64,000 nucleotides of DNA from Arcobacteraceae bacterium (GCA_048268245.1 JBLWVX010000008.1:17127-81126), one strand, 5' to 3'. Numbered from the stretch's first letter, positions 31,494 through 53,096 are shown. A program made the numbers and translations. The notes: generated by a model not told the origin, from the sequence alone.

Positions 31494-31526
31494 TATCATA
31501 CATATTTCATACGCAAATTATAGAAT
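31494..31526 (+). promoter_or_regulatory. lutA promoter with direct-repeat box
   Basis: TATCAT-acata-TTTCAT-acgcaaatta-TAGAAT. Confidence 0.65.
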
Positions 31527-31552
31527 TAGTCTATAACAACAAAGGAGTATGT

Positions 31553-32302
31553 ATGAAAGTTGGTCTATTTATTCCATGTTTTATGAATGAACTTTACCCA
31601 GACATTTGTAAAGCAACATATAAAGTATTAAAAAAACAAGGTTTAGAGATTGATTATCCAATAAATCAAACTTGCTGTGGTCAACCTATGGCAAACTCAG
31701 GATGTTCAAGAGATATAGAAACTTTAGCAAAACAATTCGTAAAAAACTTCAAAGACTATGACTATATAGTTGCCCCTAGTGGATCATGTGTTGCAATGGT
31801 AAAAGAACATTATACACCATTTTTCAATAATGACTCAGACTACAATAAAGTAAAAGCTTCTATTTATGAAGTATGTGAATTTTTACATGATGTAATAGGT
31901 ATTGAAAATCTGAAAATTGATGTAAGTTTTGCTCATAAAGTAGGTCTTCATAATTCATGTCATGGACACAGAGCTTTAAAACTTGGAACTGCAAGTGAAC
32001 TTAATGTTCCTTATAACTCAAAATTAGAAAACATCTTAAATATAGTAAAAGACATTGAACTAGTTGAACTTAAAAGAAAAGATGAATGTTGTGGATTTGG
32101 TGGAACATTCTCAGTTGCCCAAGAAGATATATCAGTAGCAATGGGAAAAGATAGAATTAAAGATCATTTAGATTCAGATGCAAAAGTTATGACAGGTGCA
32201 GATATGTCATGCCTTATGCATATGGATGGACTAATAAATAGAAACAACTACCCAATAAAAGTAATGCATATTACACAAATTTTAGCAGGAGAAGAACTAT
32301 GA
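31553..32302 (+). CDS. lutA: L-lactate dehydrogenase complex CCG subunit (LutA/LldE)
   Basis: QTCCGQPMANSG, PSGSC, HNSCH, ECCGFGGTFSV. Confidence 0.92.
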   Translation: MKVGLFIPCFMNELYPDICKATYKVLKKQGLEIDYPINQTCCGQPMANSGCSRDIETLAKQFVKNFKDYDYIVAPSGSCVAMVKEHYTPFFNNDSDYNKVKASIYEVCEFLHDVIGIENLKIDVSFAHKVGLHNSCHGHRALKLGTASELNVPYNSKLENILNIVKDIELVELKRKDECCGFGGTFSVAQEDISVAMGKDRIKDHLDSDAKVMTGADMSCLMHMDGLINRNNYPIKVMHITQILAGEEL

Positions 32303-33669
32303 GTACACATCCAGAGAATGCAAAAAAATTCGTAGCTAATGATGAGAGAATGCACTGGCATGATGAAGCTTTATGGTTTGTAAGAGCAAAAAGAGATTTA
32401 GCTTCTAAATCTATTCCTGAATGGGAACAATTAAGAGAGTATGCAAGTCAAATAAAAACTCATACAATGGCAAATCTTGATAAATATCTTTTAGAATTTG
32501 AAAAAAATGCAAATGCTAAAGGTATTAAAGTTCACTGGGCATCTGACGCTCAAGAGCACAATGAAATTGCATACAGACTTCTAAAAGAAAAAGGCGTAAA
32601 AAAACTTGTAAAATCAAAATCGATGCTAACAGAAGAGTGTCATTTAAATCCTTTCTTAGAGCAAAGAGGAATCGAAGTAATTGATACAGACTTAGGTGAA
32701 AGAATTGTTCAATTAAGAAATGAACCACCTTCACATATTGTACTTCCTGCAATTCACTTAAAGAAAATGGATGTTTCAGATACATTCCATGAAAAATTAG
32801 GTACCCAAAAAGGAAATGATGATCCAACTTATTTAACAAGAGCTGCAAGAGCAAGTCTTAGAGAAGATTTCTTAACAGCAGATGCAGGTATGACAGGAGT
32901 TAACTTTGCTATTGCAAATACAGGTGGAGTTGTTGTTTGTACCAACGAAGGGAATGCAGATATGGGTGCTTCAGTTCCAAAGTTACATATAGCTTCAATG
33001 GGAATGGAAAAAATCATTCCAAGATTAGAAGACTTATCAGTATTTACAAGATTACTTGCAAGAAGTGCAACAGGTCAGCCTATTACTTCATATACTTCAC
33101 ATTTCCATGCACCTATTGAGGGTGGAGAAATGCATATAATTATTGTAGATAATAAAAGAAGTGAATTTTTAAGTTCTTCAAAATACAAAAAAGCTCTAAA
33201 CTGTATTAGATGTGGAGCATGTATGAATACTTGTCCTGTATATAGAAGAAGTGGAGGGCACTCTTATGAATATACTATTCCTGGACCAATTGGTTCTATT
33301 TTAGGTGCAGTAAAAGAACCTGAAAAACATAGTAGTTTACCTTTTGCTTGTACATTATGTGGATCATGTTCTCATGTTTGTCCTGCAAAAATTGATTTAG
33401 ACTCTCAACTTTATGCAAGAAGACAAGACTTAAGTGAAATGAAACTTATAGATCCTAAGAAAAAAATGGCAATGAAAGTTACTGCATGGCTTATGAGTAA
33501 ACCAAGTTTATTTAATCTAGCTGGAAAAATTGCAAGAAAAGTTGTTCCTAAACTTCCAAATTCACTTGTATACAATAAATCAAATGTATGGGGAAGACAA
33601 AGAGACTTACCTAAAATGCCAGAGAAGAGCTTTAAAGAGATGTTTGAACAAGGAGAATTAGATGACTAG
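32299..33669 (+). CDS. lutB: L-lactate utilisation Fe-S subunit (LutB/LldF)
   Basis: KSKSM, TDLGE, PSHIVLPAIH, TNEGN, CIRCGACMNTCP, CTLCGSCSHVCP. Confidence 0.94.
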   Translation: MSTHPENAKKFVANDERMHWHDEALWFVRAKRDLASKSIPEWEQLREYASQIKTHTMANLDKYLLEFEKNANAKGIKVHWASDAQEHNEIAYRLLKEKGVKKLVKSKSMLTEECHLNPFLEQRGIEVIDTDLGERIVQLRNEPPSHIVLPAIHLKKMDVSDTFHEKLGTQKGNDDPTYLTRAARASLREDFLTADAGMTGVNFAIANTGGVVVCTNEGNADMGASVPKLHIASMGMEKIIPRLEDLSVFTRLLARSATGQPITSYTSHFHAPIEGGEMHIIIVDNKRSEFLSSSKYKKALNCIRCGACMNTCPVYRRSGGHSYEYTIPGPIGSILGAVKEPEKHSSLPFACTLCGSCSHVCPAKIDLDSQLYARRQDLSEMKLIDPKKKMAMKVTAWLMSKPSLFNLAGKIARKVVPKLPNSLVYNKSNVWGRQRDLPKMPEKSFKEMFEQGELDD

Positions 33670-34252
33670 TAAAGAAAAAATTTTAAATAGCATTAGAAAA
33701 AACAATGTAGTTGAAAATGTTGAACTTCCAAATTCATATGAAAACTTTGGTTTAACTTTTGAAGATAAGTTCGAAAAATTCTCTACTATGATTGAATCAG
33801 TAGGAGGAAAAGCCTTATTAATTGATAAAGCTGATTTAGAAAAAACAATAAGTGAACTTTATCCTGATGAAAAAATAATAGCTTCAAATGTTGAAGGCTT
33901 ATCATTAAAAAACTTTGATGCAAATGAAAAAGATGATGCTCATGAACTAAAAGATATTGATTTAGCAGTTGTAAAAGGCAATTTTGCAATAGCTGAAAAT
34001 GGTGCTGTATGGATGAAAAATGAAGATAATAGACATAGAGCTTTATACTTTATAGCACAAAATATTGTAACAGTTTTAGACGAAAAAGATATTTTAAATA
34101 ATATGCATGAAGCATATACTAAAATCAATTTTGAAGACAAAGGTTATGGTGTATTTATTTCAGGACCATCAAAAACTGCTGATATTGAACAATCGTTGGT
34201 AATTGGTGCCCACGGACCTAAATCTGGATATGTAATTTTTACTAAATCTTGA
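33662..34252 (+). CDS. lutC: LUD-domain lactate utilisation protein (LutC/LldG)
   Basis: IAENG, ISGPSKTADIEQSLVIGAHGP. Confidence 0.92.
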   Translation: MTSKEKILNSIRKNNVVENVELPNSYENFGLTFEDKFEKFSTMIESVGGKALLIDKADLEKTISELYPDEKIIASNVEGLSLKNFDANEKDDAHELKDIDLAVVKGNFAIAENGAVWMKNEDNRHRALYFIAQNIVTVLDEKDILNNMHEAYTKINFEDKGYGVFISGPSKTADIEQSLVIGAHGPKSGYVIFTKS

Positions 34253-34279
34253 TATAATAGCCAAATAGAAGGGTCTTTA

Positions 34280-36472: not shown

Positions 36473-36473
36473 A

Positions 36474-37115
36474 GTGAAAATTTTACTTTTAGAAGACAAC
36501 AAAAAACTAAATGAAACAATAAAAAAAAGACTTAAACTTAAAGGTTATGCAGTTGAAGCATATACAGATGGAGCAGAAGTTTATGAAAAAATTACAGATG
36601 GATATAGCTGTTTTATCTTAGATATAAATGTTCCAAATGTTGATGGAATAAAAATCCTAAAAAGAATTAGAGAATTTTATGAAACTATTCCTGTGATTAT
36701 AATTTCAGCAAGTGTAGAACTAGATGTAATTAAGGAGTCTTATGACTTTGGATGTAATGATTATCTAAAAAAACCTTTCTTTATAGATGAACTTGAAATA
36801 AAAATTGAGAAGTTATGTAACATTCAAGATGATTATTTACATTTTGACAAAGATTGTTATTTTGATTATAAATCCTCAACTGTTGTTATAGACAAGCAAG
36901 AGTATAGACTTACAAAAAAAGAAAGACTTTTAATGAACTTATTTTTAACTAAAAAAAATCAGGTTTTATCTTATGAAAGTATTGAAAATTACGTATGGGA
37001 AGGAAGTTTTGCTTCTTTAGAGTCCATAAGAAGTTTAATAAGAAGACTAAGAAAAGTTCTTCAAAGAGACTATATCCAAACAGTAGTAGATACGGGGTAT
37101 ATTTTTAAAACTTAA
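36474..37115 (+). CDS. OmpR-family response regulator
   Basis: LLEDN, ILDINVP, KP, winged-helix IRRLRK; GTG start. Confidence 0.93.
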   Translation: MKILLLEDNKKLNETIKKRLKLKGYAVEAYTDGAEVYEKITDGYSCFILDINVPNVDGIKILKRIREFYETIPVIIISASVELDVIKESYDFGCNDYLKKPFFIDELEIKIEKLCNIQDDYLHFDKDCYFDYKSSTVVIDKQEYRLTKKERLLMNLFLTKKNQVLSYESIENYVWEGSFASLESIRSLIRRLRKVLQRDYIQTVVDTGYIFKT

Positions 37116-37120: not shown

Positions 37121-37639
37121 CTAAAGTCTCAAAGAGGCTTTCATTTGAGAATATAACTCTTCATATTCATCCTTACTTAATACCCTTCCATGGGATAAAA
37201 AAAGAAGTTCCAAACTCTCTTGTTCTTTTCTAAAAGGCACTTGATAGTGTTTAAAATCATTTACTTTAAAATCAAATTTTTCATAAAACCTTAATCTTTT
37301 TTTACTAATTTCATCCCTTATCAACTCTATTTCTAAAACCACTTGTTTATTTCTATCTAATAAACTGTTCAAAATTTTTGAACCATAAGACTTTCCTCTA
37401 AAGCCTGATTCAACGGCAAAGTGCTCAATAAATCTAAATTTATCAAAATCCCAATAAAATACTATTCCCACAAAATCATTTTCATCTAAATAAGCATATG
37501 TTTTATACCTACTATCATTTTGAATTTGTTTTTGTTCATCTATATTTCTTCTCTCAATTTTGGGAAAAGAAGTTTCATAAAGTTCCCAAGCTTTATAAAA
37601 TAAATCACTATTTTTTATATCCATAGCTACCAATGGCAT
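37121..37639 (-). CDS. GNAT acetyltransferase
   Basis: FIEHFAV..FRGKSYGS motif A, RLRFYEKFDF. Confidence 0.85.
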   Translation of the reverse strand: MPLVAMDIKNSDLFYKAWELYETSFPKIERRNIDEQKQIQNDSRYKTYAYLDENDFVGIVFYWDFDKFRFIEHFAVESGFRGKSYGSKILNSLLDRNKQVVLEIELIRDEISKKRLRFYEKFDFKVNDFKHYQVPFRKEQESLELLFLSHGRVLSKDEYEELYSQMKASLRL

Positions 37640-37647: not shown

Positions 37648-38292
37648 CTAACTATTATTTAATAATAGATAATAGCCTCTATTAGATGAAGCTTTAATTG
37701 TAAGAGGGATTTTTTTTCTTAATCTTCTAATTAATGTTCTTATTGCATCAATAGAAGCATACTCACCTTTCCATACATAGTTTTGAATATTCTCATAAGT
37801 AACTAGCTTATTTAAATTTATCGCAAAAAGATTTACAAGTAAACTTTCTTTCTCAGTTAAATTATTTCTCTTATCATTTACTGTTAAAATACTCTCTTTA
37901 AAATTAAAGATGCAAGAGCCTAATATAATTTCATTACTTGGGATATTACATAATTTATCAATTTTTATTTCAAGTTCATCTATAAAAAAAGGTTTTTTTA
38001 GATAATCATTACATCCAAAGTCATAAGACTCCTTAATTACATCTAGTTCAACTGTAGATGAAATTATAATAACAGGGCAGCTCTCATAAAAGTCTCTAAT
38101 TTTTTTTAATATTTTTATACCATCAACATTTGGAACATGAATATCTAAAAGAAAGCATGAATAGCCATTTGTTATATTATCATAAGCCTCTTGTCCACAT
38201 GTATAAGAGTGTACTTTATATCCTTTTAACTCTAGTTTTAGTTTGATTGTCTCATTTAAAGTTTCATTATCTTCTAAAAGTAATATTTTCAT
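37648..38292 (-). CDS. OmpR-family response regulator (paralog of 36474..37115)
   Basis: Shares VELDVIKESYDFGCNDYLKKPFFIDELEIKI with the first regulator. Confidence 0.93.
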   Translation of the reverse strand: MKILLLEDNETLNETIKLKLELKGYKVHSYTCGQEAYDNITNGYSCFLLDIHVPNVDGIKILKKIRDFYESCPVIIISSTVELDVIKESYDFGCNDYLKKPFFIDELEIKIDKLCNIPSNEIILGSCIFNFKESILTVNDKRNNLTEKESLLVNLFAINLNKLVTYENIQNYVWKGEYASIDAIRTLIRRLRKKIPLTIKASSNRGYYLLLNNS

Positions 38293-39450: not shown

Positions 39451-40647
39451 TTATTCTATGTTTTTAACTAAAATTGCTGTTCCCATTCCTCCACCGATAC
39501 ATAATGAAGCTAATCCATACTCTAATTCTTGTTTTTTCATTTCATGTACTAATGAAACAATTATTCTATTAGCACTAGCACCAACAGGGTGACCTAAAGC
39601 GATTCCACTACCATTAACATTAATTTTTTTCTGAAGTATCTCATCAGTTAAATTAACTTTTTCTTTTAATAACTCAAATACTCCTAAGATTTGTGATGCA
39701 AAAGCTTCATTGATTTCAATAAGATCAATTTCATCAATTGACATATTAGTCTTTTCTAATAGCTTTTCAATAGCATATGCAGGACTAAGTCCCATAATAG
39801 ATGGATCAATACCTACTTGTGATACATCAATAATTTCAACTAATGGTTTTAGATTATATTTTTTTACAGCCTCTTCTGAAGCAATTAAAGTAAAACTTGC
39901 TCCATCATTTATTCCAGAAGCATTACCAGCTGTAACAGTTCCATCTTTTTTAAATGCAGGTCTAAGTTTTTGTAGTTTCTCAAGCGAAGTATTTCTATTT
40001 ATATACTCATCTTTATCAAAAATAATATCACCCTTTCTAGTTTTAACTGTTACAGGAGTAATCTCATCAACAAATTTTTTTTCATCATCAGCTATTGCTG
40101 CTTTTTCTTGTGAAAATATTGCATATTCATCTTGCATTTCTCTTGTAATGTTAAATTTCTCAGCTATATTTTCAGCTGTTATTCCCATATGATAACCTTC
40201 AAAAGCATCAACTAAAGCATCACTCATTGAGTCAACAAGTTTACTATCACCTAAACTCATTCCTGCTCTTATTTTTGAAGAGACTAAAAAAGGTGCTGAA
40301 GACATATTTTCAACACCTCCTGCAATAATTACATCCTTTTCTCCTGCTTTTATTTCAGAAATTGCATTCATTACAGCTTTCATTCCGGAACCACACAGCA
40401 TATTAATAGAATATGCAACCGTAGATTTAGGTAAACCTCCATAAATTGATGCTTGTCTTCCAATACCTTGAGAATGACCAGCTGATAAGATATTTCCAAC
40501 TATAACCTCATCAACAATTGTGTTATCAATATCCTTTATTAGGTCTTTTATTACTTGTCCAGCTAAATCACCTGGCTTTACATCCTTTAAAGTTCCTAGA
40601 AAACTTCCAATTGCACTTCTTTTTGCTTCAACTATATATACTTTCAT
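39451..40647 (-). CDS. atoB: Acetyl-CoA C-acetyltransferase (thiolase)
   Basis: NMLCGSG, NEAF, GHPVGASA, CIGGGMG. Confidence 0.93.
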   Translation of the reverse strand: MKVYIVEAKRSAIGSFLGTLKDVKPGDLAGQVIKDLIKDIDNTIVDEVIVGNILSAGHSQGIGRQASIYGGLPKSTVAYSINMLCGSGMKAVMNAISEIKAGEKDVIIAGGVENMSSAPFLVSSKIRAGMSLGDSKLVDSMSDALVDAFEGYHMGITAENIAEKFNITREMQDEYAIFSQEKAAIADDEKKFVDEITPVTVKTRKGDIIFDKDEYINRNTSLEKLQKLRPAFKKDGTVTAGNASGINDGASFTLIASEEAVKKYNLKPLVEIIDVSQVGIDPSIMGLSPAYAIEKLLEKTNMSIDEIDLIEINEAFASQILGVFELLKEKVNLTDEILQKKINVNGSGIALGHPVGASANRIIVSLVHEMKKQELEYGLASLCIGGGMGTAILVKNIE

Positions 40648-40660
40648 TTATTTCCTTATA

Positions 40661-41296
40661 TTATTTTTTAAGAGCAACTTTATAAGTTGCAGGGGTAAGC
40701 TCTTTTATTTGCTCTAAAGATGTATCACCTATTAATTCTGTTAAATGTAGTTTTCCATCAATATATTCAAAAACACCTAATTCAGTAATAATCATATCTA
40801 TCACGCTTTTTCCTGTAAGAGGTAATGTACACTCTTTAAGTATTTTAGGAAGTCCTTTTGCCGTATGCTGCATAGCTACAATAACTTTTTTTACACCACT
40901 TACTAAATCCATAGAGCCACCCATTCCTGGTACAAACTTCCCAGGAATATTCCAACTTGCTAAACTACCATTCTCATCTACTTCTAATGCTCCTAATACT
41001 GTAATATCAATATGTCCACCTCTTATAATTTCAAAAGATGTTGAAGAATCAAAAAAAACACCACCTGGTTTTAGATTTACATGTGTTCCTCCTGCATCTA
41101 TAACATCTATATCCTTATTGCTATCACTAGCCTTATCCCATACTCCAGCAAAACCATTTTCTGAATGTAAAACTATTTTTACATCAGAAGGTATGTAGTT
41201 AGGTATTAAAGTAGGAAGTCCTATTCCAAGATTAATAAAATCACCATTACTAAACTCTTTTACAACTCTTTGTGCAATTATTTCTTTTGCTGACAT
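40661..41296 (-). CDS. atoA: Acetate/3-oxoacid CoA-transferase subunit B
   Basis: NLGIGLPT, HSENG catalytic Glu, IRGGH, PGMGGSMDL. Confidence 0.88.
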   Translation of the reverse strand: MSAKEIIAQRVVKEFSNGDFINLGIGLPTLIPNYIPSDVKIVLHSENGFAGVWDKASDSNKDIDVIDAGGTHVNLKPGGVFFDSSTSFEIIRGGHIDITVLGALEVDENGSLASWNIPGKFVPGMGGSMDLVSGVKKVIVAMQHTAKGLPKILKECTLPLTGKSVIDMIITELGVFEYIDGKLHLTELIGDTSLEQIKELTPATYKVALKK

Positions 41297-41298
41297 TT

Positions 41299-41988: not shown

Positions 41989-42021
41989 AGTATATGAATA
42001 AATAATGATAAAATTATGGCA
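41989..42021 (-). promoter_or_regulatory. CoA-transferase operon promoter with direct-repeat box
   Basis: Minus strand TGCCAT-aattt-TATCAT-tatttattca-TATACT. Confidence 0.7.
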
Positions 42022-42502: not shown

Positions 42503-42505
42503 ATC

Positions 42506-42928: not shown

Positions 42929-42946
42929 AGTTTTCTCCTAGAAATC

Positions 42947-43804
42947 TTATTTCTTAGGGTAATCGTAAAACCCTTTACCTGACTTAACTCCATACCAACC
43001 AGCTTCAACATATTTAACTAATAAGGGAGAAGGACTATATTTAGGATTACCAAACCCTTCATGTAATACATTCATAATAGCTAAGCAAGTATCAAGACCA
43101 ATAAAATCAGCTAATGCTAAAGGTCCCATGGGATGTCCCATACCAAGTTTCATAGCAGTATCTATTGACTCAACATCACCTACACCTTCATATAAAGCAC
43201 AAATAGCTTCATTTATCATAGGCATCAAAATACGATTTGCAATAAATGCAGGATAATCTTTTGAAGTTGCTACAGTTTTACCTAAAGACTGAGCAAATGT
43301 TTTTGTAGTTTCATACATTTCATCACTTGTAGCAATTCCAGGAATAAGTTCAACTAATTTCATAACTGGAACAGGATTCATAAAATGTAAACCTATAAAT
43401 CTATCTGGTCTATTTGTTGCAGCAGCTAATTTAGTAATAGACATACTTGAAGTATTTGTAGATAATAAACAATCATCTTTAATATGTTCTAATAAACCTT
43501 GAAATATTTTTATTTTTAAATCCAAGTTTTCTGTTGCAGCTTCTATAATAAGATCTGCACTATTTAATGTACTAGAATCTGTACCAGTAGATATTCTGTT
43601 TAATGAACTATTCATATCTTCTTGAGTAATTTTTCCTTTTTGTACTTGTCTACTAAGATTTTTATTAATAACTTCCATAGCCTTATCTAGTGCTTCTTGA
43701 GCAATATCAATTAAAATTACTTTATATCCTGACAGGGCACAAACATGAGCAATTCCATTACCCATTTGCCCAGAGCCTATAATTCCAACTTCTTTTATTT
43801 CCAT
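42947..43804 (-). CDS. hbd: 3-hydroxybutyryl-CoA dehydrogenase
   Basis: GSGQMG, EAATEN, TNTSS, GLHFMNPVPVM, HPMGPL..D.IGLD. Confidence 0.94.
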   Translation of the reverse strand: MEIKEVGIIGSGQMGNGIAHVCALSGYKVILIDIAQEALDKAMEVINKNLSRQVQKGKITQEDMNSSLNRISTGTDSSTLNSADLIIEAATENLDLKIKIFQGLLEHIKDDCLLSTNTSSMSITKLAAATNRPDRFIGLHFMNPVPVMKLVELIPGIATSDEMYETTKTFAQSLGKTVATSKDYPAFIANRILMPMINEAICALYEGVGDVESIDTAMKLGMGHPMGPLALADFIGLDTCLAIMNVLHEGFGNPKYSPSPLLVKYVEAGWYGVKSGKGFYDYPKK

Positions 43805-43834
43805 TTTTTTGCCTTTTATAAATTTTTATATTTT

Positions 43835-44476
43835 CTAACTATTTTCTAATATGAAAACAGTTTCAATAGCCTGAGATTTACGCTTTAATCCACTAGGGAT
43901 ATCAATATTTTCATTTAATAATGTAATCTCATAATAATCACTATAATGATGTTCTATTTCTGATAATGGTACAGAAAAAGGAGGTCCATTCATAATATTT
44001 TGATCATAGTCATAACTAATTAGTAATTGAGGTACAGCGTTTGTAATGTTTAACAAATGGCTTACATACTCTATTCTCATTTCCAAAGGAAGAGCAACTA
44101 ATGCCGCTCTATCATAAATAGCATCAATAGGTTTTAATATTTCAGCACTCATGTCAAAAAAATCTCCAACATAAATATCAATATTTTTTGCTTTATATCT
44201 AATAAAGTTATTCTCTTTTGATATTGTAGGAGTAATATTCAACTCTTTAAAAAGTAGGTCAATTGCCTCTTTATTTAACTCAATACCAACAAGATTGTAA
44301 TCCTTTTTCAATAACCATGCTATGTCTAAAGTTTTACCACATAAAGGAAGAAATATACGCTTCTTTTTGGGTAGATTTAATTTATGGAAATATTTAATTA
44401 ACATAGGATTTACTTCTTTTATATGAAAAGCTATTTGATTTTTTTCCCATCTTTCATTCCAAAAATCTATATGCAC
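43835..44476 (-). CDS. tpm: Thiopurine S-methyltransferase family protein
   Basis: FWNERWEKNQIAFH, PLCGKTLD, GDFF, YDRAALVALP, GPPFSV; GTG start. Confidence 0.9.
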   Translation of the reverse strand: MHIDFWNERWEKNQIAFHIKEVNPMLIKYFHKLNLPKKKRIFLPLCGKTLDIAWLLKKDYNLVGIELNKEAIDLLFKELNITPTISKENNFIRYKAKNIDIYVGDFFDMSAEILKPIDAIYDRAALVALPLEMRIEYVSHLLNITNAVPQLLISYDYDQNIMNGPPFSVPLSEIEHHYSDYYEITLLNENIDIPSGLKRKSQAIETVFILENS

Positions 44477-44497
44477 GCTATATCTCCACTTTAATTT

Positions 44498-45409
44498 TTA
44501 TGCTAATTTATTAGTTAATTCTGGTACAAATTGAAGTACATCTGCTACTACTAAAATATCAGCAACCTCATTTATTGGAGCATCTTTATCTGTATTAACA
44601 GCAACAATAAATTCTGATTTTTTCATTCCTGCTAAATGTTGAATAGCTCCTGAAACTCCACAAGCTATATATAATTTAGGTGAAACTGTTTGTCCTGTTG
44701 TTCCTACTTGGTGGCTTTGATCAACCCATGCATTATCAGCAACTGGTCTACTTGCACCCAATTCACCACCTAATTTATCAGCTAGAGCTTGAATAATTGG
44801 AATATTATCTTTCTTCCCAACTCCACGACCAGCTGTTACAATAACTTCAGCTTTTGTTAAATCTAAACCTTTAGCTTCAGCTTCTTCATAAGCTACAAAG
44901 TTTACATTTGACGAAGCATCTGCTGACATATTTTCAATAGAAGGCATACCTTGAGGCTCAGAAAGAGGAGTGAAAGCTCCTGCTTGAATAGTAATAACTG
45001 TTTTATCCGTTTTCGATTTTAATTCTCTTCTTAGTTTTGAGTTACAAGAAGGAACAATAAAAGAGTTATCTTTATAATCAATTACTTCTGTAAATTGTGT
45101 AGCTTTTAATGAAGTAGCAACTCTAGGCGCTAAATCCCAACCAAAAGAAGAGTGTATAAATACAATTAAATCTGGGTTCTCTTTTTCAACTACATCTAAA
45201 ACTAATTGTTTATGTGCACTTGGGTTATACTCACCAAGAGTTTTAGCATCTGCTAAATAAAGTTTTCCATCAAATTTTGGAATATCTTCTTCATAACCAA
45301 CTGCTAACATCACTTTATCTGCTTCTAATTTATCCGCAAATCCTATTAATTCATATGTTACATCTAATAACTTATTTTCTCTATACTCACCAACTAATAA
45401 TATTTTCAT
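44498..45409 (-). CDS. etfA: Electron transfer flavoprotein alpha subunit
   Basis: GASRP, QVGTTG, GVSGAIQHLAGM, AVNTDKDAPI. Confidence 0.94.
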   Translation of the reverse strand: MKILLVGEYRENKLLDVTYELIGFADKLEADKVMLAVGYEEDIPKFDGKLYLADAKTLGEYNPSAHKQLVLDVVEKENPDLIVFIHSSFGWDLAPRVATSLKATQFTEVIDYKDNSFIVPSCNSKLRRELKSKTDKTVITIQAGAFTPLSEPQGMPSIENMSADASSNVNFVAYEEAEAKGLDLTKAEVIVTAGRGVGKKDNIPIIQALADKLGGELGASRPVADNAWVDQSHQVGTTGQTVSPKLYIACGVSGAIQHLAGMKKSEFIVAVNTDKDAPINEVADILVVADVLQFVPELTNKLA

Positions 45410-45422
45410 AATACTTTCCTTT

Positions 45423-46190
45423 CTAAAGAACCGAAGTTTTTTCTTTTAATATTGCAATTAATTTATCTGCAAGCTCTGGAACATCACCTTCTAATACTAG
45501 ACTACCACCACTTTTTTGTGGATAGTAAAAATTAAGTGTTTCATTTAAACTATCACCGCTTGATAACTCTAAACTATCAATAGTTATTAATTCTTTCTTT
45601 TTTGCTTTCATAATATTTGGTAAAGTAGGGTATCTTGGAGTATTAAGTCCTAATTGACAAGTTAATACAACAGGAGTATCTACTTTGATAATAGATTTTA
45701 ATCCACCTTCAAGCTCTCTTTTAACTGTAATACCATCAGAATATTCAAAGTCTGCAATTGTAGATACACAAGCGAAATTTAATAGTTCAGAAACAATAAC
45801 ACCAACTTGAGCAGAACCCCTATCTTGCGACTGCATTCCAGTAAAGATAATGTCAAAACTTTTATCTTTAGCAAAATCAGCAATTAAACTAGCAACTTGT
45901 GAAGAATCTTTTATATAAGACTCTTCATCTTCAATGTGAACAGCTCTATCACATCCCATTGCTAAAGCTTTTTTTAAAGCTTCTTTCACTCTTGCAGGTC
46001 CCACACATAAAACAGTAATGTCAACATCTGATAATTGTTCTTTTAATTGAACTGCTTGCTCAATAGCATATTCATCATATTCATTAATACGATAAGCTAG
46101 ATCATTTTCATCAAACCAATTATTTTGAGTATTTACTTTGAATTTTGATTCCATATCTGGAACTTGTTTAATACATACAAGTACTTTCAT
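45423..46190 (-). CDS. etfB: Electron transfer flavoprotein beta subunit
   Basis: VCIKQVPD, NEYDEYAIE, ALAMG, PRYPTL. Confidence 0.94.
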   Translation of the reverse strand: MKVLVCIKQVPDMESKFKVNTQNNWFDENDLAYRINEYDEYAIEQAVQLKEQLSDVDITVLCVGPARVKEALKKALAMGCDRAVHIEDEESYIKDSSQVASLIADFAKDKSFDIIFTGMQSQDRGSAQVGVIVSELLNFACVSTIADFEYSDGITVKRELEGGLKSIIKVDTPVVLTCQLGLNTPRYPTLPNIMKAKKKELITIDSLELSSGDSLNETLNFYYPQKSGGSLVLEGDVPELADKLIAILKEKTSVL

Positions 46191-46205
46191 CTATATATCC
46201 TTTTA

Positions 46206-48227
46206 TTATTTTTTTAGTCTTTCAACTATAATTTCTGATAAATCTTTTACAACTAAACTATCTTCACACTCTGCCATTTTAATTCCATCTTCAAACATTG
46301 TAAGACAAAATGGACAGTTAGAGATTAGAGTAGGAGCTCCTGTTTCTTGAGCCATGTTAACTCTATCCACATTGATTTTTTTATTTCCTAAATGCTCTTC
46401 TGCAAGGATTCTTCCTCCCCCAGCACCACAACAAGAAGTATCTTTTTTACTTTTTGCCATTTCAATGATATTTGCACCAGCTGAGTCTAAAAGTGATCTT
46501 GGTTCTAAATCAATATCATTGTGTCTTACTAAATAACAAGAGTCATGGTAAGTACAGTCAAACTCTTTTTCTTCCATTGGGATACGCTTTTCTTTTTCTA
46601 ATCTATCTAGGAAAACTGTGTAATGTTCAACTTCTGTTTTTAAACCTAAATCCCTATAGTCTTTATTTAAAGTATTAAAACAATGTGGACAAGTAGTTAC
46701 AATTTTTAAAACATTATATTTATGAAGGTTTTCAATATTTTCTTTTGCTAACTCTTGATATAAATACTCATTACCCATTTTACGAATAGGCTCACCACAA
46801 CATTTTTCTTCTTTTCCTAAAATTCCTACTTTAATGCCAGAAGCATTACAAATTTCAACAAAATTTCTTGCAATTTTTTGGTTTCTTGCATCAAATGAAG
46901 CATAACAACCAACATAATAAAGAACATCTACTGGATTTTTTAAAATATCAGTAGTATCACTCATAATTACAACATCTAAACCTTTTGTCCAATCTCCTCT
47001 TGAAGCTAATGCTAATCCCATAGGGTTTCCATTTACCTCTACATTATCCATAGCTTTCATCACTTCTTCGCCAGCAAATTCACCTTCCATTAAAACAAGG
47101 TTTCTTCTAATATCTACAATCTTACTTACATGTTCATTTGCTGATGGACAAATATCTTCACAAGCTCTACATGTTGTACATGACCAAATAGCATCTTGTC
47201 CAATATCATCAACCAGATTTCTATCAGGGTCATTAAAAGCAGCATCACCAATTTTATGAATTACACTCATAGGAGATAAGGGTTTACCTGTTGCGTTAGC
47301 AGGACAAATATCTTCACATCTATTACAGCTAATACAAGCATCTGCATCAAATATATCTTTCCATGTAAAATCTTTTACAGTTGAAGCACCAAATGATTCA
47401 ATATTTTCATCTTCCATATCTAAAGTAACTAATTTTCCTGTAGGACCTTTATCTTTAAACACATAATTAGCACTAATTGTAAACATATGTCTTAATTTAG
47501 TTAAAGGAATCACTACAAAAAAGGCAAGAACAATTACAAGGTGAAACCACCATAATATTTTATGTGATAATAATAAAGATACTTGACTAACGTCCGAAAG
47601 CATTTTTGCAATAACCATTCCTACAGGAGAGAAAATCATCCATTCTGGATTAGTCTTAAGCTCAGTAGCAGCCATTCTTAAACCTTCAATTAAAAATCCA
47701 GTTATCAAGATAATATACAACAGCACATGAATAATTGTATCTTCACGTGACGTTATTAAATTTTCAGGTTTAAAAACAAATCTTCTTATAAATAAAGCTG
47801 TCATCATAATAATTCCAACAAGTCCAGCAATATCTAAAGATAAAGAGTAAATCTTATAAAAATCCCCTTTTAAAAAGACATAATCAAATAATACTCCTGT
47901 AACATCTGTTTGAACAAAAATTAAGAATGTTCCAATAAATAAGATTATAAATGACCAAAAAAATAAACTGTGAGCAATACCAGGTCTACTATTTCTTCTA
48001 ACTCTAATTTGACCCATCATATTAGTCAACATATATTTTATTCTTTCACCAATATTATCTGTTCTATTTATAGGTCTTCCTAATTGATATACTTTATATC
48101 TTCTATAAAAAAGATATATTACTAACCCCATTGCTAAAAAAGTAAGAAAATACATCAATCCAACAGTTGTTGCAGTCTTTCCTATATTCCAATATACTTC
48201 TCTAGTTATTTCAGTAGTAGCTTCCAT
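46206..48227 (-). CDS. Membrane-anchored Fe-S oxidoreductase (FadF/DUF224; putative ETF:menaquinone oxidoreductase)
   Basis: N-terminal TM domain with several His, two CxxCxxCxxxCP motifs, two CCG domains; lies between the acyl-CoA dehydrogenase and etfB. Confidence 0.85.
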   Translation of the reverse strand: MEATTEITREVYWNIGKTATTVGLMYFLTFLAMGLVIYLFYRRYKVYQLGRPINRTDNIGERIKYMLTNMMGQIRVRRNSRPGIAHSLFFWSFIILFIGTFLIFVQTDVTGVLFDYVFLKGDFYKIYSLSLDIAGLVGIIMMTALFIRRFVFKPENLITSREDTIIHVLLYIILITGFLIEGLRMAATELKTNPEWMIFSPVGMVIAKMLSDVSQVSLLLSHKILWWFHLVIVLAFFVVIPLTKLRHMFTISANYVFKDKGPTGKLVTLDMEDENIESFGASTVKDFTWKDIFDADACISCNRCEDICPANATGKPLSPMSVIHKIGDAAFNDPDRNLVDDIGQDAIWSCTTCRACEDICPSANEHVSKIVDIRRNLVLMEGEFAGEEVMKAMDNVEVNGNPMGLALASRGDWTKGLDVVIMSDTTDILKNPVDVLYYVGCYASFDARNQKIARNFVEICNASGIKVGILGKEEKCCGEPIRKMGNEYLYQELAKENIENLHKYNVLKIVTTCPHCFNTLNKDYRDLGLKTEVEHYTVFLDRLEKEKRIPMEEKEFDCTYHDSCYLVRHNDIDLEPRSLLDSAGANIIEMAKSKKDTSCCGAGGGRILAEEHLGNKKINVDRVNMAQETGAPTLISNCPFCLTMFEDGIKMAECEDSLVVKDLSEIIVERLKK

Positions 48228-48241
48228 AATACTCCCTAAAC

Positions 48242-48260
48242 AAGCCTTTAAAAAAGGCTT
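48242..48260. terminator. Intergenic hairpin between the acyl-CoA dehydrogenase and Fe-S oxidoreductase genes
   Basis: AAGCCTTT-aaa-AAAGGCTT. Confidence 0.45.
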
Positions 48261-48278
48261 TTATTCTTCATTCATTTT

Positions 48279-49421
48279 TTATTTAAATAACATCTTTCCA
48301 ATAATCACACGTTGTATTTCACTTGTACCTTCATATATTTCTGTGATTTTTGCATCTCTATACATTCTTTCAACTTCATACTCACAAATAAACCCATATC
48401 CACCATGAACCTGAATAGCATCTTTTGTAACAAATGTTGCTGTTTCAGAAGCAGATAATTTTGCCATTGCTGATTCCATAATATATGGCTTATTATTTTG
48501 TTTTAACCATGCAGCTTTATAAATTAGAATTTTACTTTGTTCAATTCTTAGTTTCATTTCTGCAAGTTTCATTGATACTGCTTGAAATGCTGAAAGAGGT
48601 TTGTTAAATTGTTTTCTTTCTTGTGTATATTCAACTGATCTTTCTAATGCTCCTTCTGCAATACCTAAAGCTTGGGCACCAATACTAATTCTTCCTGCAT
48701 TTAAAGTTTCCATAGCAATTTTAAAACCATCACCTTCTTTTCCTAACATATTTTCTTTAGGAACTTTAACTCCATCCAAAGCAAATGCTGTTGTATAACT
48801 TCCTCTGATTCCCATTTTTACTTCATTTTTTATGATTTCTACGCCAGGACTTTCTAAATCAATAATAAATGCCGATAAACCTTTATGTCCTAAAGTCTTA
48901 TCTTTTGTTGCAATTACAATTCCAGTACCTTTATATGCACCATTTGTAATAAATATTTTTGATCCACTAATTACATAACAATCATCTTCTTCTTTATATT
49001 TAGTATCAATATTTGATACATCACTACCTGCATTTGGTTCTGTTTGTAAAAAACAACCAATTTTTTCACCACTTGCCAATGCAGGAAGATATTTTTCCTT
49101 TTGTTCTTGCGTTCCATAAGATAAAATTGGTCCACAACATAACGAAGTATGTGCTGCAATTAAAACTCCTGTTGAAGCACAAGCTTTTGATACTTCTGCA
49201 ACAGTTAAAATATACGAGAAATAATCCATTCCAGCTCCACCATACTCTTCAGGGATATAAGTACCCATAAATCCTAATTCACTTATTTGAGAAATTAAAG
49301 ATGAAGGGATTTCATGTTTCTCATCAATCTCAACAGCCAAAGGTTTAATTTCATTATTAACAAAGTCCTTAAGACTATCTATTAATACTTTATGATCTTC
49401 ACTTAATTCAAAATTCATCAT
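48279..49421 (-). CDS. bcd: Short-chain (butyryl-CoA-type) acyl-CoA dehydrogenase
   Basis: TEPNAGSD, GSKIFITN, KMGIRG, RKQF, HGGYG, IYEGTSEIQR. Confidence 0.85.
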   Translation of the reverse strand: MMNFELSEDHKVLIDSLKDFVNNEIKPLAVEIDEKHEIPSSLISQISELGFMGTYIPEEYGGAGMDYFSYILTVAEVSKACASTGVLIAAHTSLCCGPILSYGTQEQKEKYLPALASGEKIGCFLQTEPNAGSDVSNIDTKYKEEDDCYVISGSKIFITNGAYKGTGIVIATKDKTLGHKGLSAFIIDLESPGVEIIKNEVKMGIRGSYTTAFALDGVKVPKENMLGKEGDGFKIAMETLNAGRISIGAQALGIAEGALERSVEYTQERKQFNKPLSAFQAVSMKLAEMKLRIEQSKILIYKAAWLKQNNKPYIMESAMAKLSASETATFVTKDAIQVHGGYGFICEYEVERMYRDAKITEIYEGTSEIQRVIIGKMLFK

Positions 49422-49448: not shown

Positions 49449-49481
49449 AGTATAATTAGAAAAGATGACATAAAAATGTCA
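49449..49481 (-). promoter_or_regulatory. Acyl-CoA dehydrogenase operon promoter with direct-repeat box
   Basis: Minus strand TGACAT-tttta-TGTCAT-cttttctaat-TATACT. Confidence 0.7.
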
Positions 49482-49586: not shown

Positions 49587-50987
49587 TTAACTTGCAGTTT
49601 TTTCTTTAGGGGCTTCTTCTGAGTCCAGAATACTATTTTCCCCATCATGTTTACCTAAAAGCTTAGGTCTTTCAAGTAAAAAGTATAATATTAATCCAAT
49701 GATAACTGCATATAGTGTAGATTTTGGATCAGGCATAGATAAAGTAATTGCTACAATACCAGCAACTCCCCTTTCAGTAGAATTTTTTAACTGTTCCATT
49801 CCTACTAAAATACAAATATATGCAGTAAGAATTAAAGTAAGTGATAGTGCAATAGGAAGAACTGGTTTAAAAAAACTTACCAATGGCAGCATAAATAAAG
49901 CTATCATTCCACTAATCCAGAATGTTCCCCCACCACTATAAATAGATTCCATAGACTTTTTGCCCATTGCATACCTTTCAGCTACTGTTGCATGAACTGC
50001 TGTAAATAAAGGCCCTGATAGTCCAGGCCAAGGTGCAAAGAAAGCATGTAAACCATTTCTAATTGATGTAACTAAATGTACTCTATCAACATTTTCTTCA
50101 ATTTTTTCATCTTGTCTAATATGATCAACTCTTTTTACTAATGTAAATCCAATAATAATATCACCAAAAGCAATTACATAAGCAATTAAAGCTGTAGGTA
50201 TTGCTAATAAAAAAACATCATATGATGGTAATCCATTTGCAAATATCAAATAATTCCACATTAAAGCAAAATCAGGCTGTGTAATTCCCATTTGTATATC
50301 TGGTAAAGGATATTCCCCAACAGCCCAACCAACAAAAATTGCAATAATCAAACCTGTAACCAAACCAAAGTTTGCAATTTGTTTTGCAAAAGGGTTATTC
50401 TGTATCACATTTTTGAAAGATAAAGAAAACAGTACATAAGCGGAAACTAATGAACCTATTATAATTGAGATTGGTGTTGTATCTATTCTTCCTCCAACTT
50501 TTAACTCACCCATTAAAGCTGCAACTCCTGCACCAATAATAACACCTGATTTTAAAGAGTTTGGAATTGCATTAACTAATTTACTTCCTAATCTTGTTAT
50601 TCCTAAAAATAGGAAAATAAGTGTTACTTCAATTTGTAAGGCAAACATAGCTTTAATAGCTTCAGGACCTGGTTCAAAACCTTTTAAGTAAAGTAAAACA
50701 ACTGGAATAGCAGGAGTAATCCATCCTGGCACTAAAGGAACTCCTAAAAGAGAAGGAAGTATATATCCTATTCCTGCAATAAATGTAAATGCCAATGCTG
50801 CTTCATAAGGCATACCTAAATAAGTTTGGAGCAATGGAATCATTGCTAACCCTACTACAAACATAAAAAATCCTTGTATCATCTCAGGTAATTCCCAACG
50901 ATAATGAACAAAAGGTAGTCTAATTTTAAATGGACCTATAGGCCAACAAGGTTGTTCTTCACCATCTTTTCTTTTATAAACTGGCAT
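49587..50987 (-). CDS. Uncharacterised polytopic permease (distantly NCS2/SLC23-like)
   Basis: 466 aa, many hydrophobic helices, PGWITPAIP and YVIAFGD motifs; AAAGGA RBS. Confidence 0.75.
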   Translation of the reverse strand: MPVYKRKDGEEQPCWPIGPFKIRLPFVHYRWELPEMIQGFFMFVVGLAMIPLLQTYLGMPYEAALAFTFIAGIGYILPSLLGVPLVPGWITPAIPVVLLYLKGFEPGPEAIKAMFALQIEVTLIFLFLGITRLGSKLVNAIPNSLKSGVIIGAGVAALMGELKVGGRIDTTPISIIIGSLVSAYVLFSLSFKNVIQNNPFAKQIANFGLVTGLIIAIFVGWAVGEYPLPDIQMGITQPDFALMWNYLIFANGLPSYDVFLLAIPTALIAYVIAFGDIIIGFTLVKRVDHIRQDEKIEENVDRVHLVTSIRNGLHAFFAPWPGLSGPLFTAVHATVAERYAMGKKSMESIYSGGGTFWISGMIALFMLPLVSFFKPVLPIALSLTLILTAYICILVGMEQLKNSTERGVAGIVAITLSMPDPKSTLYAVIIGLILYFLLERPKLLGKHDGENSILDSEEAPKEKTAS

Positions 50988-51030: not shown

Positions 51031-51055
51031 AGTTCTCTCCTTATTAATTTAAAAA

Positions 51056-51088
51056 AGTATATTTGGAAAAAATGACAATTTAATGATA
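51056..51088 (-). promoter_or_regulatory. Permease promoter with direct-repeat box
   Basis: Minus strand TATCAT-taaat-TGTCAT-tttttccaaa-TATACT. Confidence 0.7.
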
Positions 51089-51177: not shown

Positions 51178-51211
51178 AAAAGCTATAAATTATTTGTAAA
51201 TTATAGCTTTT
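51178..51211 (-). terminator. Terminator after the MaoC gene
   Basis: AAAAGCTATAA-N12-TTATAGCTTTT. Confidence 0.6.
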
Positions 51212-51233
51212 ATTAAATGAGATTTATTTAAGA

Positions 51234-51668
51234 TTATTGTTTTGGAACAAAAGCTTCTGACTCACCATCAATAACAATTTCCCCTTTTACAATACAAATA
51301 GATTGTAAAAAAACTCTTCTTCTTTCTGGGTCAATATCAGTTACAATTAATTTTGCCGTTACAGTATCTCCAATATATACTGGCTTTAAAAACTTTATAG
51401 TTTGAGAAACCCAAACACAGCCAATACCAGGAAGTTTTGTACCCATAAGACCTGAAAAAAAAGATACAGAAATTAATCCATGTGCAATTCTTCTTTCCCA
51501 TCTTGTATTTTGTGCATATTCATCACTAATATGTACAGGATTATGATCTCCTGAAAGACCTGCAAAAGTCTTAATATCACAATCTGTTATTGTTTGAGTA
51601 TAACTAACTTCCATTCCTCTTTTTATATCTTCAAACAATAGCGTATCAAAATTAACTAATTTAGACAT
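51234..51668 (-). CDS. MaoC/PhaJ-type (R)-specific enoyl-CoA hydratase
   Basis: FAGLSGDHNPVH (D-x4-H), IAHGL, FLKPVYIGDTV. Confidence 0.88.
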   Translation of the reverse strand: MSKLVNFDTLLFEDIKRGMEVSYTQTITDCDIKTFAGLSGDHNPVHISDEYAQNTRWERRIAHGLISVSFFSGLMGTKLPGIGCVWVSQTIKFLKPVYIGDTVTAKLIVTDIDPERRRVFLQSICIVKGEIVIDGESEAFVPKQ

Positions 51669-51698
51669 GTTACTTCTCCTATTTATTTATTTGAATTT

Positions 51699-51731
51699 AG
51701 TATATATTTATTAAATGACAAAAAAATGGCA
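51699..51731 (-). promoter_or_regulatory. MaoC promoter with direct-repeat box
   Basis: Minus strand TGCCAT-ttttt-TGTCAT-ttaataaata-TATACT. Confidence 0.7.
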
Positions 51732-51739
51732 ACTAAATA

Positions 51740-52909
51740 CTACTTTACGCTAAGCTTTTTAAATTTCATTTTATGCATATAAGTTACAAAATGCTTAATA
51801 AAATGTGCAAGATAACCTTTCACAAATAAAGTATTAAAAATTAAACCAATGGCATATGAACCACCCAATGAAATTAAAACACCATTTGATTTAGGTATAA
51901 AATTTTTATTAACTTTATTATTAATTTTATTACTTATAAATCTTGCAACAAATGTACCTGCTTGTATAGCTAATTGTGCTGTAGGTGGAACATATTTATT
52001 ATCACACATAATCTGTGCTGCATCTCCAATAACAAAAACATTTTTCTCTCCCTCTAATTGGAGGTATTCATTTACAATATATTGATTTAATTTATTAACA
52101 CGATAAGATTTTGTTGAATCTATCGTTATACCTCTAATACCTCCAGTAAAAATAAAACAGTTATAATCAATAACATCCCCATTATCTAAATAAATTTTAT
52201 TTTCATCTACATCTTTAATAAACGTTCCTAAAAAAGTCTTAACATCTAAGTTTTTAAGTCTTTCCTCACAAGCAGTAATTAGCCTTTCATCCATATTAGG
52301 TAGAACTGTTTTCATACCATCCACAATATAAACTTTCATATTAGTTGCTTTAGAAGAAGGTATTACTTCTTTTATCAAAGCAGCCATTTCACTAGCTACT
52401 TCAACACCAGAAAGTCCTGCACCTCCTATAACAATATTATAAGAAGCACTATCTTCATCTTTTTGTTTTAAAACTGTTTTACTTATTAAAGAATCAAAAG
52501 ACTGGTTAACAATTGTCGCTTTTTGAAGAGTTTTGATTCCAATAGAATACTTCTTAATATTAGGAACTTGAGGAGGAAAGTTTGTAAGTGCACCTGTTGC
52601 AATTATTAAATCATCATATTTGTATTTAATATTATTAGATGATGTCACTTCTTTTTTCTCTGAATCAAAATGTATAATTACTTCTTTATAAAATCTTATA
52701 TTAGAATTAATATCATCAATATATCTACTAATATTTATTGTTACATCTGAAATACTATATTTTGTAGCTACAAAGCCATATGATTCAACCTGTATATAAT
52801 GATAATTCTTTTTGTCAAAAAGCAAAATCTCTATATCTTTATTCTTAGATAACTCTTTTATTGCATAAAGTCCTGCATAACTAGCCCCAATAATAATAAC
52901 TTTTCTCAT
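51740..52909 (-). CDS. Type II NADH:quinone oxidoreductase-like flavoprotein
   Basis: IIGASYAGL, LIIATGA, GGAGLSGVEVASE, FVIGD, PPTAQLAIQAG. Confidence 0.8.
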   Translation of the reverse strand: MRKVIIIGASYAGLYAIKELSKNKDIEILLFDKKNYHYIQVESYGFVATKYSISDVTINISRYIDDINSNIRFYKEVIIHFDSEKKEVTSSNNIKYKYDDLIIATGALTNFPPQVPNIKKYSIGIKTLQKATIVNQSFDSLISKTVLKQKDEDSASYNIVIGGAGLSGVEVASEMAALIKEVIPSSKATNMKVYIVDGMKTVLPNMDERLITACEERLKNLDVKTFLGTFIKDVDENKIYLDNGDVIDYNCFIFTGGIRGITIDSTKSYRVNKLNQYIVNEYLQLEGEKNVFVIGDAAQIMCDNKYVPPTAQLAIQAGTFVARFISNKINNKVNKNFIPKSNGVLISLGGSYAIGLIFNTLFVKGYLAHFIKHFVTYMHKMKFKKLSVK

Positions 52910-52936
52910 ACTTTCTTCTCCAAAAATATTTTTATA

Positions 52937-52969
52937 ATGTTACATATAAATAATGATAAAAATATGGCA
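52937..52969 (-). promoter_or_regulatory. NDH-2-like gene promoter with direct-repeat box
   Basis: Minus strand TGCCAT-atttt-TATCAT-tatttatatg-TAACAT. Confidence 0.6.
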
Positions 52970-53063
52970 AGAGGCTTAATATATAATTTAACAAATTATA
53001 TAAACACAAAATAAAAATATTTGTATAAAAATATACATAAAAAGTACATTTTGTCAGTGAAAA

Positions 53064-53096
53064 TATCATATCATTATCATTTCTAAAGGTTAGAAT
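53064..53096 (+). promoter_or_regulatory. TRAP operon promoter with direct-repeat box
   Basis: TATCAT-atcat-TATCAT-ttctaaaggt-TAGAAT. Confidence 0.7.

Follow-up and report, generated by a model that had tools for sequence, protein, structure and literature searches.

The pho box of Escherichia coli is a direct repeat of 11-bp period that stands in place of the -35 element, 10 bp before the -10. In the same species the AtoSC two-component system and the atoDAEB operon serve the catabolism of acetoacetate and short-chain fatty acids, AtoC being an NtrC-type sigma-54 activator, and elsewhere lactate-utilization genes are controlled in response to lactate by the GntR-type regulators LutR and LldR. 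In Desulfovibrio, according to excerpts of two reports, a lactate operon is controlled by two-component regulators (PMC6456213, PMC3333781). The sensor BumS of Campylobacter jejuni is described in excerpts of a further report as a cytoplasmic protein that has a PAS domain at its N-terminus, responds to butyrate, isobutyrate and isovalerate and acts as a phosphatase only, in an organism with no butyrate catabolism genes known to that source (PMC11796366). Here we describe a 22-kb locus within a 64,000-nucleotide stretch of DNA from a marine Arcobacteraceae bacterium (GCA_048268245.1, JBLWVX010000008.1:17127-81126; this whole stretch is called the window, and positions count from its first letter), in which seven predicted promoters share one direct-repeat box. 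Comparison of the boxes, the genes behind them and the two local pairs of sensor kinase and response regulator (HK1-RR1 and HK2-RR2) suggests that two paralogous OmpR/PhoB-type activators probably govern two parallel, self-activating regulons, with the boxes as their putative binding sites.

The motif searched was TNNCAT-N5-TNTCAT-N10-TANNNT, a direct repeat followed by a -10 hexamer. It has seven exact matches in the window, against a mean of 0.06 and a maximum of 1 in 100 dinucleotide shuffles, and permitting one mismatch adds only two matches, both intragenic. The seven boxes occupy intergenic gaps, each immediately before a different transcription unit. The coordinates and strands agree with those given in a preliminary description of this DNA, and the gene calls of that description were confirmed by Pfam and NCBIfam. 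At all seven sites the half-sites keep an 11-bp period and the gap to the TANNNT hexamer is N10; when half-site gaps of 3-7 bases were combined with box-to-hexamer gaps of 8-12 bases, only the N5/N10 combination was populated in the locus (seven matches), the three matches at N5/N12 being N5/N10 sites read two bases on, and other half-site spacings were empty. The flanks of the seven sites (40 bases upstream and 30 downstream of the motif) share 36% identity, against 35% from composition; because flank identity is close to the composition expectation, the seven promoters are independent sites and not one copied cassette.

A motif of this kind might arise by chance from base composition, or be a promoter feature general to so A+T-rich an organism. 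At 28% G+C the genome has many CAT-rich A+T words, and a loose scan with a position weight matrix returned 959 matches at a score of at least 12, mostly in coding DNA; genome-wide, these loose matches added no convincing promoter beyond the seven training sites. The exact pattern, by contrast, occurs only 11 times in the whole assembly (2,681,560 bases, 57 contigs), and 7 of the 11 occurrences fall within the locus, a clustering to which our own arithmetic, assuming uniform placement, gives a chance of ~1e-12. Intergenic-like DNA, defined as the 222,676 bases (76.8% A+T) left after masking open reading frames (ORFs) of at least 80 codons, contains 10 matches, against a mean of 0.205 and a maximum of 3 in 200 dinucleotide shuffles of the same segments, and the box thereby passes the first refutation test set in the preliminary description, namely whether it is equally frequent in shuffled A+T-matched intergenic sequence. 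Genome counts and intergenic shuffles already contradict an origin in composition or general promoter structure; the empty alternative spacings in the locus and the co-occurrence of the motif with specific regulators across genomes, described below, also speak against it, and we regard it as extremely improbable. The cis-element is real, and it is conserved.

Forty-one related genomes were scanned for the pattern, and loci were compared with genes placed by tblastn; the pattern was again clustered. The closest named relatives of the locus belong to Poseidonibacter (P. ostreae, HK2 86% identical), followed by other Arcobacteraceae. A module running from accC to orf112, then a box, lutABC-HK1-RR1, a second box, dctPQM and a D-lactate-dehydrogenase-like gene is also found in further genera, as well as in Sulfurimonas, where the box before dctP is conserved. 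Upstream of lutA, the exact pattern is present in 13 of 16 distinct evaluable loci, and the remaining three (L018, L036 and L037) have the same geometry with one mismatch. The distance from the end of the -10 to the lutA start codon is 23-30 bases at 12 of these 13 sites and 70 at the other. When the 16 lutA upstream regions were aligned, the only blocks at least 90% conserved before the ribosome-binding site were TATCATA...T.T.ATA and the -10. A box is also present at 16/16 orthologous dctP promoters, with TATCAT as half-site 1 in all of them. Promoters of the other genes keep half-sites of their own: TG[CTA]CAT as half-site 1 in all 13 orthologous CoA-transferase sites (8 distinct), TG[CAT]CAT in 6/6 flavoprotein sites, and an identical 17-mer, TATCATTAAATTGTCAT, in 5/5 permease sites. 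In four further species (G041-G044) none of the seven sites is lost, and their order and promoter-specific half-sites are the same.

In four species of the window's own genus (G002-G005) the locus is reduced to lutABC-HK1-RR1-dctPQM with two TATCAT boxes. The dctP box follows RR1 almost immediately, and ~16 kb, from RR2 to the flavoprotein gene, is missing together with the second two-component system; because of this absence the fatty-acid block looks to us like an island that was inserted between the dctP promoter and RR1.

The boxes fall into two classes when sites from the window and its relatives are grouped by their downstream gene, not by their own sequence. The lactate context comprises 29 sites (13 at lutA and 16 at dctP orthologues), all with TATCAT as half-site 1 and none with G at position 2 of either half-site. 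The island context comprises 34 sites (13 at the CoA-transferase, 6 at the flavoprotein and 5 each at the maoC, permease and dehydrogenase genes), of which 7 have TATCAT as half-site 1, 27 have G at position 2 of half-site 1, and all 34 have that G in at least one half-site. Two TG-type dctP rows were left out of the first count, a paralogue in G019 (L012) and a G020 site downstream of the first dctP (L015). The split persists down to ~60-70% protein identity among sites from related genomes. In the window itself it takes the form that the preliminary description had seen, with TATCAT and TAGAAT at the two lactate promoters, TATACT at four of the five island promoters and TAACAT at the NDH-2-like flavoprotein gene.

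Each class is also distributed with one of the two kinases. The long, HK1-type kinase occurs in 17 of the 41 genomes (727-745 residues, 48-54% identity to HK2), and the short, HK2-type kinase in 5 (open frame of 376-386 residues, at least 64% identity), all of which carry the long kinase as well. A strict class 2 pattern (TGNCAT-N5-TNTCAT-N10-TATAMT) gave 14 matches spread across all five genomes with the short kinase, and a strict class 1 pattern (TATCAT-N5-THTCAT-N10-TANAAT) gave 29 matches in 15 of the 17 genomes with the long kinase. Backward versions of both patterns gave 0 matches in all 41 genomes.

RR1 and RR2 share 65% identity, and HK2 matches the C-terminal half of HK1 at 52% identity. 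When 32 distinct regulators from the loci are placed in a maximum-likelihood tree with four outgroup paralogues, one branch (support 99/90) parts 14 regulators adjacent to the short kinase from 18 adjacent to the long one, and both groups are jointly set apart from the outgroups (support 96/99). This topology fits a duplication of the lactate system in which the kinase would have lost its N-terminal binding-protein-like domain. Eleven alignment columns fully discriminate the two regulator groups; in the recognition helix these include S184 versus A and S187 versus T (with one G), and in the wing, the C-terminal hairpin, positions 202-205 read QTVV versus KASS. A HMMER alignment of the RR1 effector domain to E. 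coli PhoB (1gxp, 3t72) pairs S184 with T194, S187 with V197, R191 with R201 and V205 with R219, in a residue numbering derived from motif spacing that agrees with PMC3973317. Excerpts of that crystallographic report state that T194 and V197 contact thymines in both half-sites, that R201 bonds guanine and that R219 touches bases between the half-sites (PMC3973317). The recognition-helix arginines, including the one aligned with R201, are kept in both RR1 and RR2. The two regulators therefore appear to differ at positions where base reading is expected, and the boxes differ by one base, a match that is a correlation.

The preliminary description had proposed that the two local regulators place lactate oxidation and beta-oxidation under shared control. 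Several of its elements held, if indirectly: the direct-repeat geometry is that of OmpR/PhoB sites, the regulators at 36474 and 37648 are of the OmpR type (REC plus Trans_reg_C), and the genes are those of lactate and short-chain acyl-CoA metabolism. Shared control itself was not borne out, as the boxes split by gene context and each class tracks its own system. A single joint regulon, in which both regulators or their heterodimers act on all seven promoters and co-control lactate and short-chain acid oxidation, would draw on the geometry common to all sites, on the identity between RR1 and RR2 and their shared arginines, on the conserved mixed half-sites at the permease and CoA-transferase promoters, and on the presence of the long kinase in every short-kinase genome. 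Against it stand the strict partition of G at position 2 by gene context (0/29 versus 34/34), the differences between RR1 and RR2 at residues aligned with base-contacting positions of PhoB, and the four same-genus species, which have the lactate module and class 1 boxes and neither the island, the second system nor any strict class 2 match. We consider joint control unlikely, and two parallel regulons, for which the indirect evidence is strong, appear to fit these data better.

For two parallel regulons we propose the following mechanism. HK1, which has a binding-protein-like domain at its N-terminus, would phosphorylate RR1, which would bind class 1 boxes (TATCAT-N5-T[A/T/C]TCAT, with a -10 that is mostly TAGAAT or TAAAAT) and drive lutABC-HK1-RR1 and dctPQM, that is, uptake of lactate/pyruvate-type substrates and oxidation of lactate. 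HK2, a short PAS kinase, would phosphorylate RR2, which would bind class 2 boxes, defined by G at position 2 of one or both half-sites (TG[C/A/T]CAT and/or TGTCAT) and usually followed by TATACT as the -10. These boxes would drive the five units of the ~16-kb island: CoA-transferase-thiolase-HK2-RR2, the dehydrogenase/ETF (electron-transfer flavoprotein) operon, the permease, maoC and the flavoprotein gene. Their predicted functions are CoA transfer, beta-oxidation of C4 or short acyl-CoA with ETF-linked electron transfer, thiolysis and, putatively, import by a permease. At each promoter a phosphorylated regulator dimer would lie head-to-tail on the 11-bp-period repeat, at about -39 to -23, replace the -35 element and recruit RNA polymerase to the -10 located 10 bp downstream, as PhoB does. 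Each two-component system closes a box-driven unit, apart from the acetyltransferase gene that follows RR2, and because each ends an operon under its own box, each system would amplify itself. Our comparisons show the motif and its spacing, how it is conserved, the split into classes, the co-occurrence and the differences between the proteins. From them we infer the identity of the binders, activation by binding and the signals sensed, with regulators assigned to boxes by adjacency, co-occurrence and co-variation.

Class 1 boxes found elsewhere fit a lactate role for this class. G020 and G007 each have such a box ~190-210 bases before the D-lactate-dehydrogenase-like gene, the similar site of G007 being ~190 bases away, and in G004 a class 1 box with TAGAAT (L019:5123-5155) stands directly upstream of a gene for a Cache_3-Cache_2 methyl-accepting chemoreceptor, which hints at regulated taxis toward lactate. 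Class 2 boxes in other genera also precede TRAP/TAXI transporters and 3-hydroxyisobutyrate-dehydrogenase-like genes.

A number of observations weigh against the proposal of two separate regulons. The sites and the co-occurrence counts are drawn from genomes related to one another and do not amount to independent samples. The strict class 2 pattern occurs once each in two of the 36 genomes that have no short kinase (G007 and G014). Two genomes, G008 and G015, have the long kinase without a strict class 1 match, and the strict class 1 pattern has 7 matches in 4 of the 24 genomes without the long kinase (G023 2, G028 3, G034 1, G036 1); G023 has a completeness of only 85%, and both of its sites resemble true boxes of the lutA or dctP type. 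Some boxes are mixed, the permease having TATCAT as half-site 1 and many class 2 boxes having it as half-site 2, so that the specificities overlap and cross-talk may occur at mixed boxes. The genome encodes more than 35 OmpR-type regulators, including two fairly close paralogues of RR1, and another binder is possible. Finally, a box placed over the -35 position could equally be the operator of a repressor. As to the two close paralogues of RR1, they are located at C2:131527-133262 and C8:1559-2212, and one of them adjoins a 738-residue kinase 40% identical to HK2.

If the box were an operator, the local regulators or another protein would cover the -35 region and repress transcription until substrate is present. 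Polymerase could be blocked by a protein bound at about -39 to -23, and repression occurs within the OmpR family; excerpts of one report state that phosphorylated BumR represses peb3 in C. jejuni (PMC12469816). In the region 37000-56800, a generic promoter scan, uninformative in its own right, found fewer promoter-like sites than shuffles gave (100 versus 116.5), and inspection by eye revealed no TTGACA-like hexamer 16-18 bp from the -10 at any of the seven promoters, both of which count against an operator; a generic scan of the same region returned 8 terminator-like sites, against 5.9 in shuffles. The 10-bp gap to the -10 is fixed at 7/7 sites and at every pattern-matched orthologous site, the pattern itself fixing this gap at the latter, and a fixed distance of 10 bp is the arrangement of PhoB activation. 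Catabolic operons that end in their own two-component system are, moreover, typically self-activating. Repression from these boxes thus appears distinctly unlikely to us.

The proposal of two regulons can be carried further, in a form that we put forward as speculative and, taken as a whole, quite unlikely. The duplicated pair might constitute a minimal specificity switch, in which a PhoB-like regulator would turn from TATCAT to TGNCAT boxes through two changes in the recognition helix and one in the wing. Mixed boxes might be read by heterodimers or by both homodimers, and the permease box and half-site 2 of the CoA-transferase box would then integrate lactate and short-chain fatty acid signals. 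HK2 might use its PAS domain to sense a C4 acid or acyl-CoA in the cytoplasm, as a catabolic counterpart of the butyrate-responsive Campylobacter BumS, and the permease might import short-chain fatty acids.

With respect to the known systems, the element would work like a pho box, to judge by geometry and half-site: two direct-repeat half-sites of 11-bp period end 10 bp before the -10 and would replace the -35, and the half-site TGTCAT resembles what we take to be the pho-box core. The regulators also belong to the PhoB fold family; the effector domain of PhoB is one of the closest DNA-binding domains of solved structure, and the R201-aligned arginine is kept. The element is not part of a Pho regulon. 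Its targets here are lut, TRAP and acyl-CoA genes and not phosphate genes, no pattern site lies at a phosphate gene among the other matches in the genome, RR1 and RR2 score 89.9 and 64.8 bits against the PhoB model TIGR02154 (cut-off 296.2), and the residues equivalent to T194, V197 and R219 differ.

The island resembles AtoSC-atoDAEB in its logic, with a two-component system beside a CoA-transferase A/B and thiolase operon that it presumably controls; these genes lie directly upstream of HK2-RR2 on the same strand, an arrangement kept in the loci of relatives. The best NCBIfam likeness of both kinases is AtoS, far below its cut-off of 646 (HK2 146.5 bits, HK1 134.2 bits), and that of the CoA-transferase is acetate CoA-transferase alpha (259.4 against a cut-off of 315). 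Two defining features of the E. coli system are nevertheless lacking, an AtoS-equivalog kinase and an NtrC-type regulator. RR2 matches AtoC in its receiver alone (54.5 bits against a cut-off of 714), has a Trans_reg_C output domain, and as a winged-helix regulator of the OmpR type would act at a sigma-70-like -10. The kinase and regulator genes, furthermore, are here inside the catabolic operon.

BumSR of C. jejuni may be regarded as a functional analogue in the same bacterial order. HK2 shares its layout, a PAS domain and catalytic core with no N-terminal binding-protein-like domain, the two being compared by layout alone, and differs in that HK2-RR2 sits in a catabolic island. HK2-type kinases occur in 134 of 151 genomes of the order, with many paralogues and often at least 13 matches each, and no BumS counterpart could be singled out; the portions of literature text searched contained no binding consensus for BumR. 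As for lactate, the Pfam scan of 29 ORFs covering 28442-56291 found no GntR-family regulator gene beside lutABC, and the Desulfovibrio regulators and operon are a different set. In the portions of the full-text literature searched, neither the motif nor control of lutABC by a two-component system was described for Arcobacteraceae. Another candidate regulator, orf112 upstream of lutA, was dropped, as neither Pfam nor NCBIfam assigned it to a family and no DNA-binding motif was evident.

Table 1. Boxes and genes of the locus, in order of position within the window.
Feature	Position	Strand	Assignment or evidence
Class 1 box TATCAT-acata-TTTCAT, N10, TAGAAT	31494..31526	+	promoter of lutABC-HK1-RR1 (predicted)
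lutA, lutB, lutC, lactate oxidation	31553..34252	+	Pfam CCG, LUD_dom, Fer4, LutB_C
HK1 sensor kinase, 730 residues	34280..36472	+	ABC_sub_bind (binding-protein-like), PAS, HATPase_c
RR1, OmpR/PhoB-type response regulator, proposed class 1 binder	36474..37115	+	REC + Trans_reg_C
GNAT acetyltransferase, last gene after RR2	37121..37639	-	Pfam
RR2, OmpR/PhoB-type response regulator, proposed class 2 binder	37648..38292	-	REC + Trans_reg_C
HK2 short sensor kinase, 367 residues	38301..39404	-	PAS + HATPase_c, no N-terminal binding-protein-like domain
CoA-transferase subunits A and B, thiolase (ato-like), one unit with HK2-RR2	39451..41946	-	CoA_trans x2, thiolase
Class 2 box TGCCAT-aattt-TATCAT, N10, TATACT	41989..42021	-	promoter of CoA-transferase-thiolase-HK2-RR2 (predicted)
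Acyl-CoA dehydrogenase, membrane FeS/CCG oxidoreductase, ETF beta and alpha, TPMT (thiopurine S-methyltransferase family), 3-hydroxybutyryl-CoA dehydrogenase, two thioesterases	42128..49421	-	Pfam
Class 2 box TGACAT-tttta-TGTCAT, N10, TATACT	49449..49481	-	promoter of acyl-CoA dehydrogenase operon (predicted)
Multi-pass membrane protein, 466 residues, candidate carboxylate permease	49587..50987	-	BenE/DUF3360-like by language-model features
Mixed box TATCAT-taaat-TGTCAT, N10, TATACT	51056..51088	-	promoter of permease gene (predicted)
MaoC-type enoyl-CoA hydratase	51234..51668	-	Pfam/NCBIfam
Class 2 box TGCCAT-ttttt-TGTCAT, N10, TATACT	51699..51731	-	promoter of maoC (predicted)
Pyr_redox_2 flavoprotein, NDH-2-like	51740..52909	-	Pfam
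Class 2 box TGCCAT-atttt-TATCAT, N10, TAACAT	52937..52969	-	promoter of flavoprotein (NDH-2-like) gene (predicted)
Class 1 box TATCAT-atcat-TATCAT, N10, TAGAAT	53064..53096	+	promoter of dctPQM (predicted)
TRAP transporter dctP, dctQ, dctM, monocarboxylate/keto-acid type	53123..56291	+	Pfam

Within the island (Table 1), the 3-hydroxybutyryl-CoA dehydrogenase passes its NCBIfam cut-off (463.9 against 420), and the Pyr_redox_2 flavoprotein reaches no NCBIfam model at its cut-off. Neither Pfam nor NCBIfam gave a family for the 466-residue membrane protein, which by language-model features falls close to BenE/DUF3360 'benzoate transporter'-like clusters and has a conserved mixed box of its own. 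In the ETF-linked oxidoreductase (46206-48227, -), 4Fe-4S clusters and two CCG domains are fused to a NarI-like membrane domain; the protein is no ETF-quinone oxidoreductase of the classical kind, and we take it to resemble the membrane EtfD type. Amid the same operon lies the thiopurine S-methyltransferase-family gene (43835-44476, -), an odd member for beta-oxidation that is kept in that operon in four relatives at 59-89% identity. The GNAT gene is variable among relatives and is absent between RR2 and RR1 in L021-L024.

On the lactate side, the nearest solved binding proteins to DctP are 4pet and 5cm6, and the TakP-like 2hzk and lactate-binding TTHA0766 (2zzv) also match. A second DctP paralogue (19346-20413, -) is 75% identical to the box-driven one and has no upstream box. 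The D-lactate-dehydrogenase-like gene, encoding a 946-residue FAD-oxidase/FeS protein (56518-59358, +), follows dctPQM in 16 loci; in the window it has no box of its own, and a 38-codon ORF (56345-56461) intervenes after dctPQM.

Outside the locus, two exact matches in the genome, C14:40699 and C30:19900, are TTTCAT-type intergenic sites at other genes, and a third, C14:1004, was rejected as a promoter site, since it lies inside an ORF. The site at C30:19900-19932 is a triple direct repeat, TTTCAT-ttaag-TTTCAT-ttaat-TTCAC with TATAAT, upstream of a gene for a 445-residue transporter-like protein; it is conserved in G001-G003 and G041, and may serve a further paralogous regulator. The fourth exact match outside the locus, at a contig end (C7:96253-96285), is a class 1-like box, TATCAT-atagt-TATCAT, that is conserved in G001 (L001:3662-3694), with variants in G002 and G003; the G001 copy points at the 3' end of a convergent gene.

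These results change no general principle; what they offer is an annotation that is well supported and a good system for experiments. They nominate a family-less membrane protein of 466 residues as a short-chain carboxylate permease. They also predict that lactate use in this organism would be switched by a kinase fused to a binding-protein-like domain and not by a GntR repressor. The two systems would provide a clean case of a duplicated two-component system insulated from its parent, in which one base of the box and a few residues aligned with base-contacting positions change together. Regulation in Arcobacteraceae is almost unmapped, and the locus offers the family a testable regulon of seven promoters, two sensors and two regulators.

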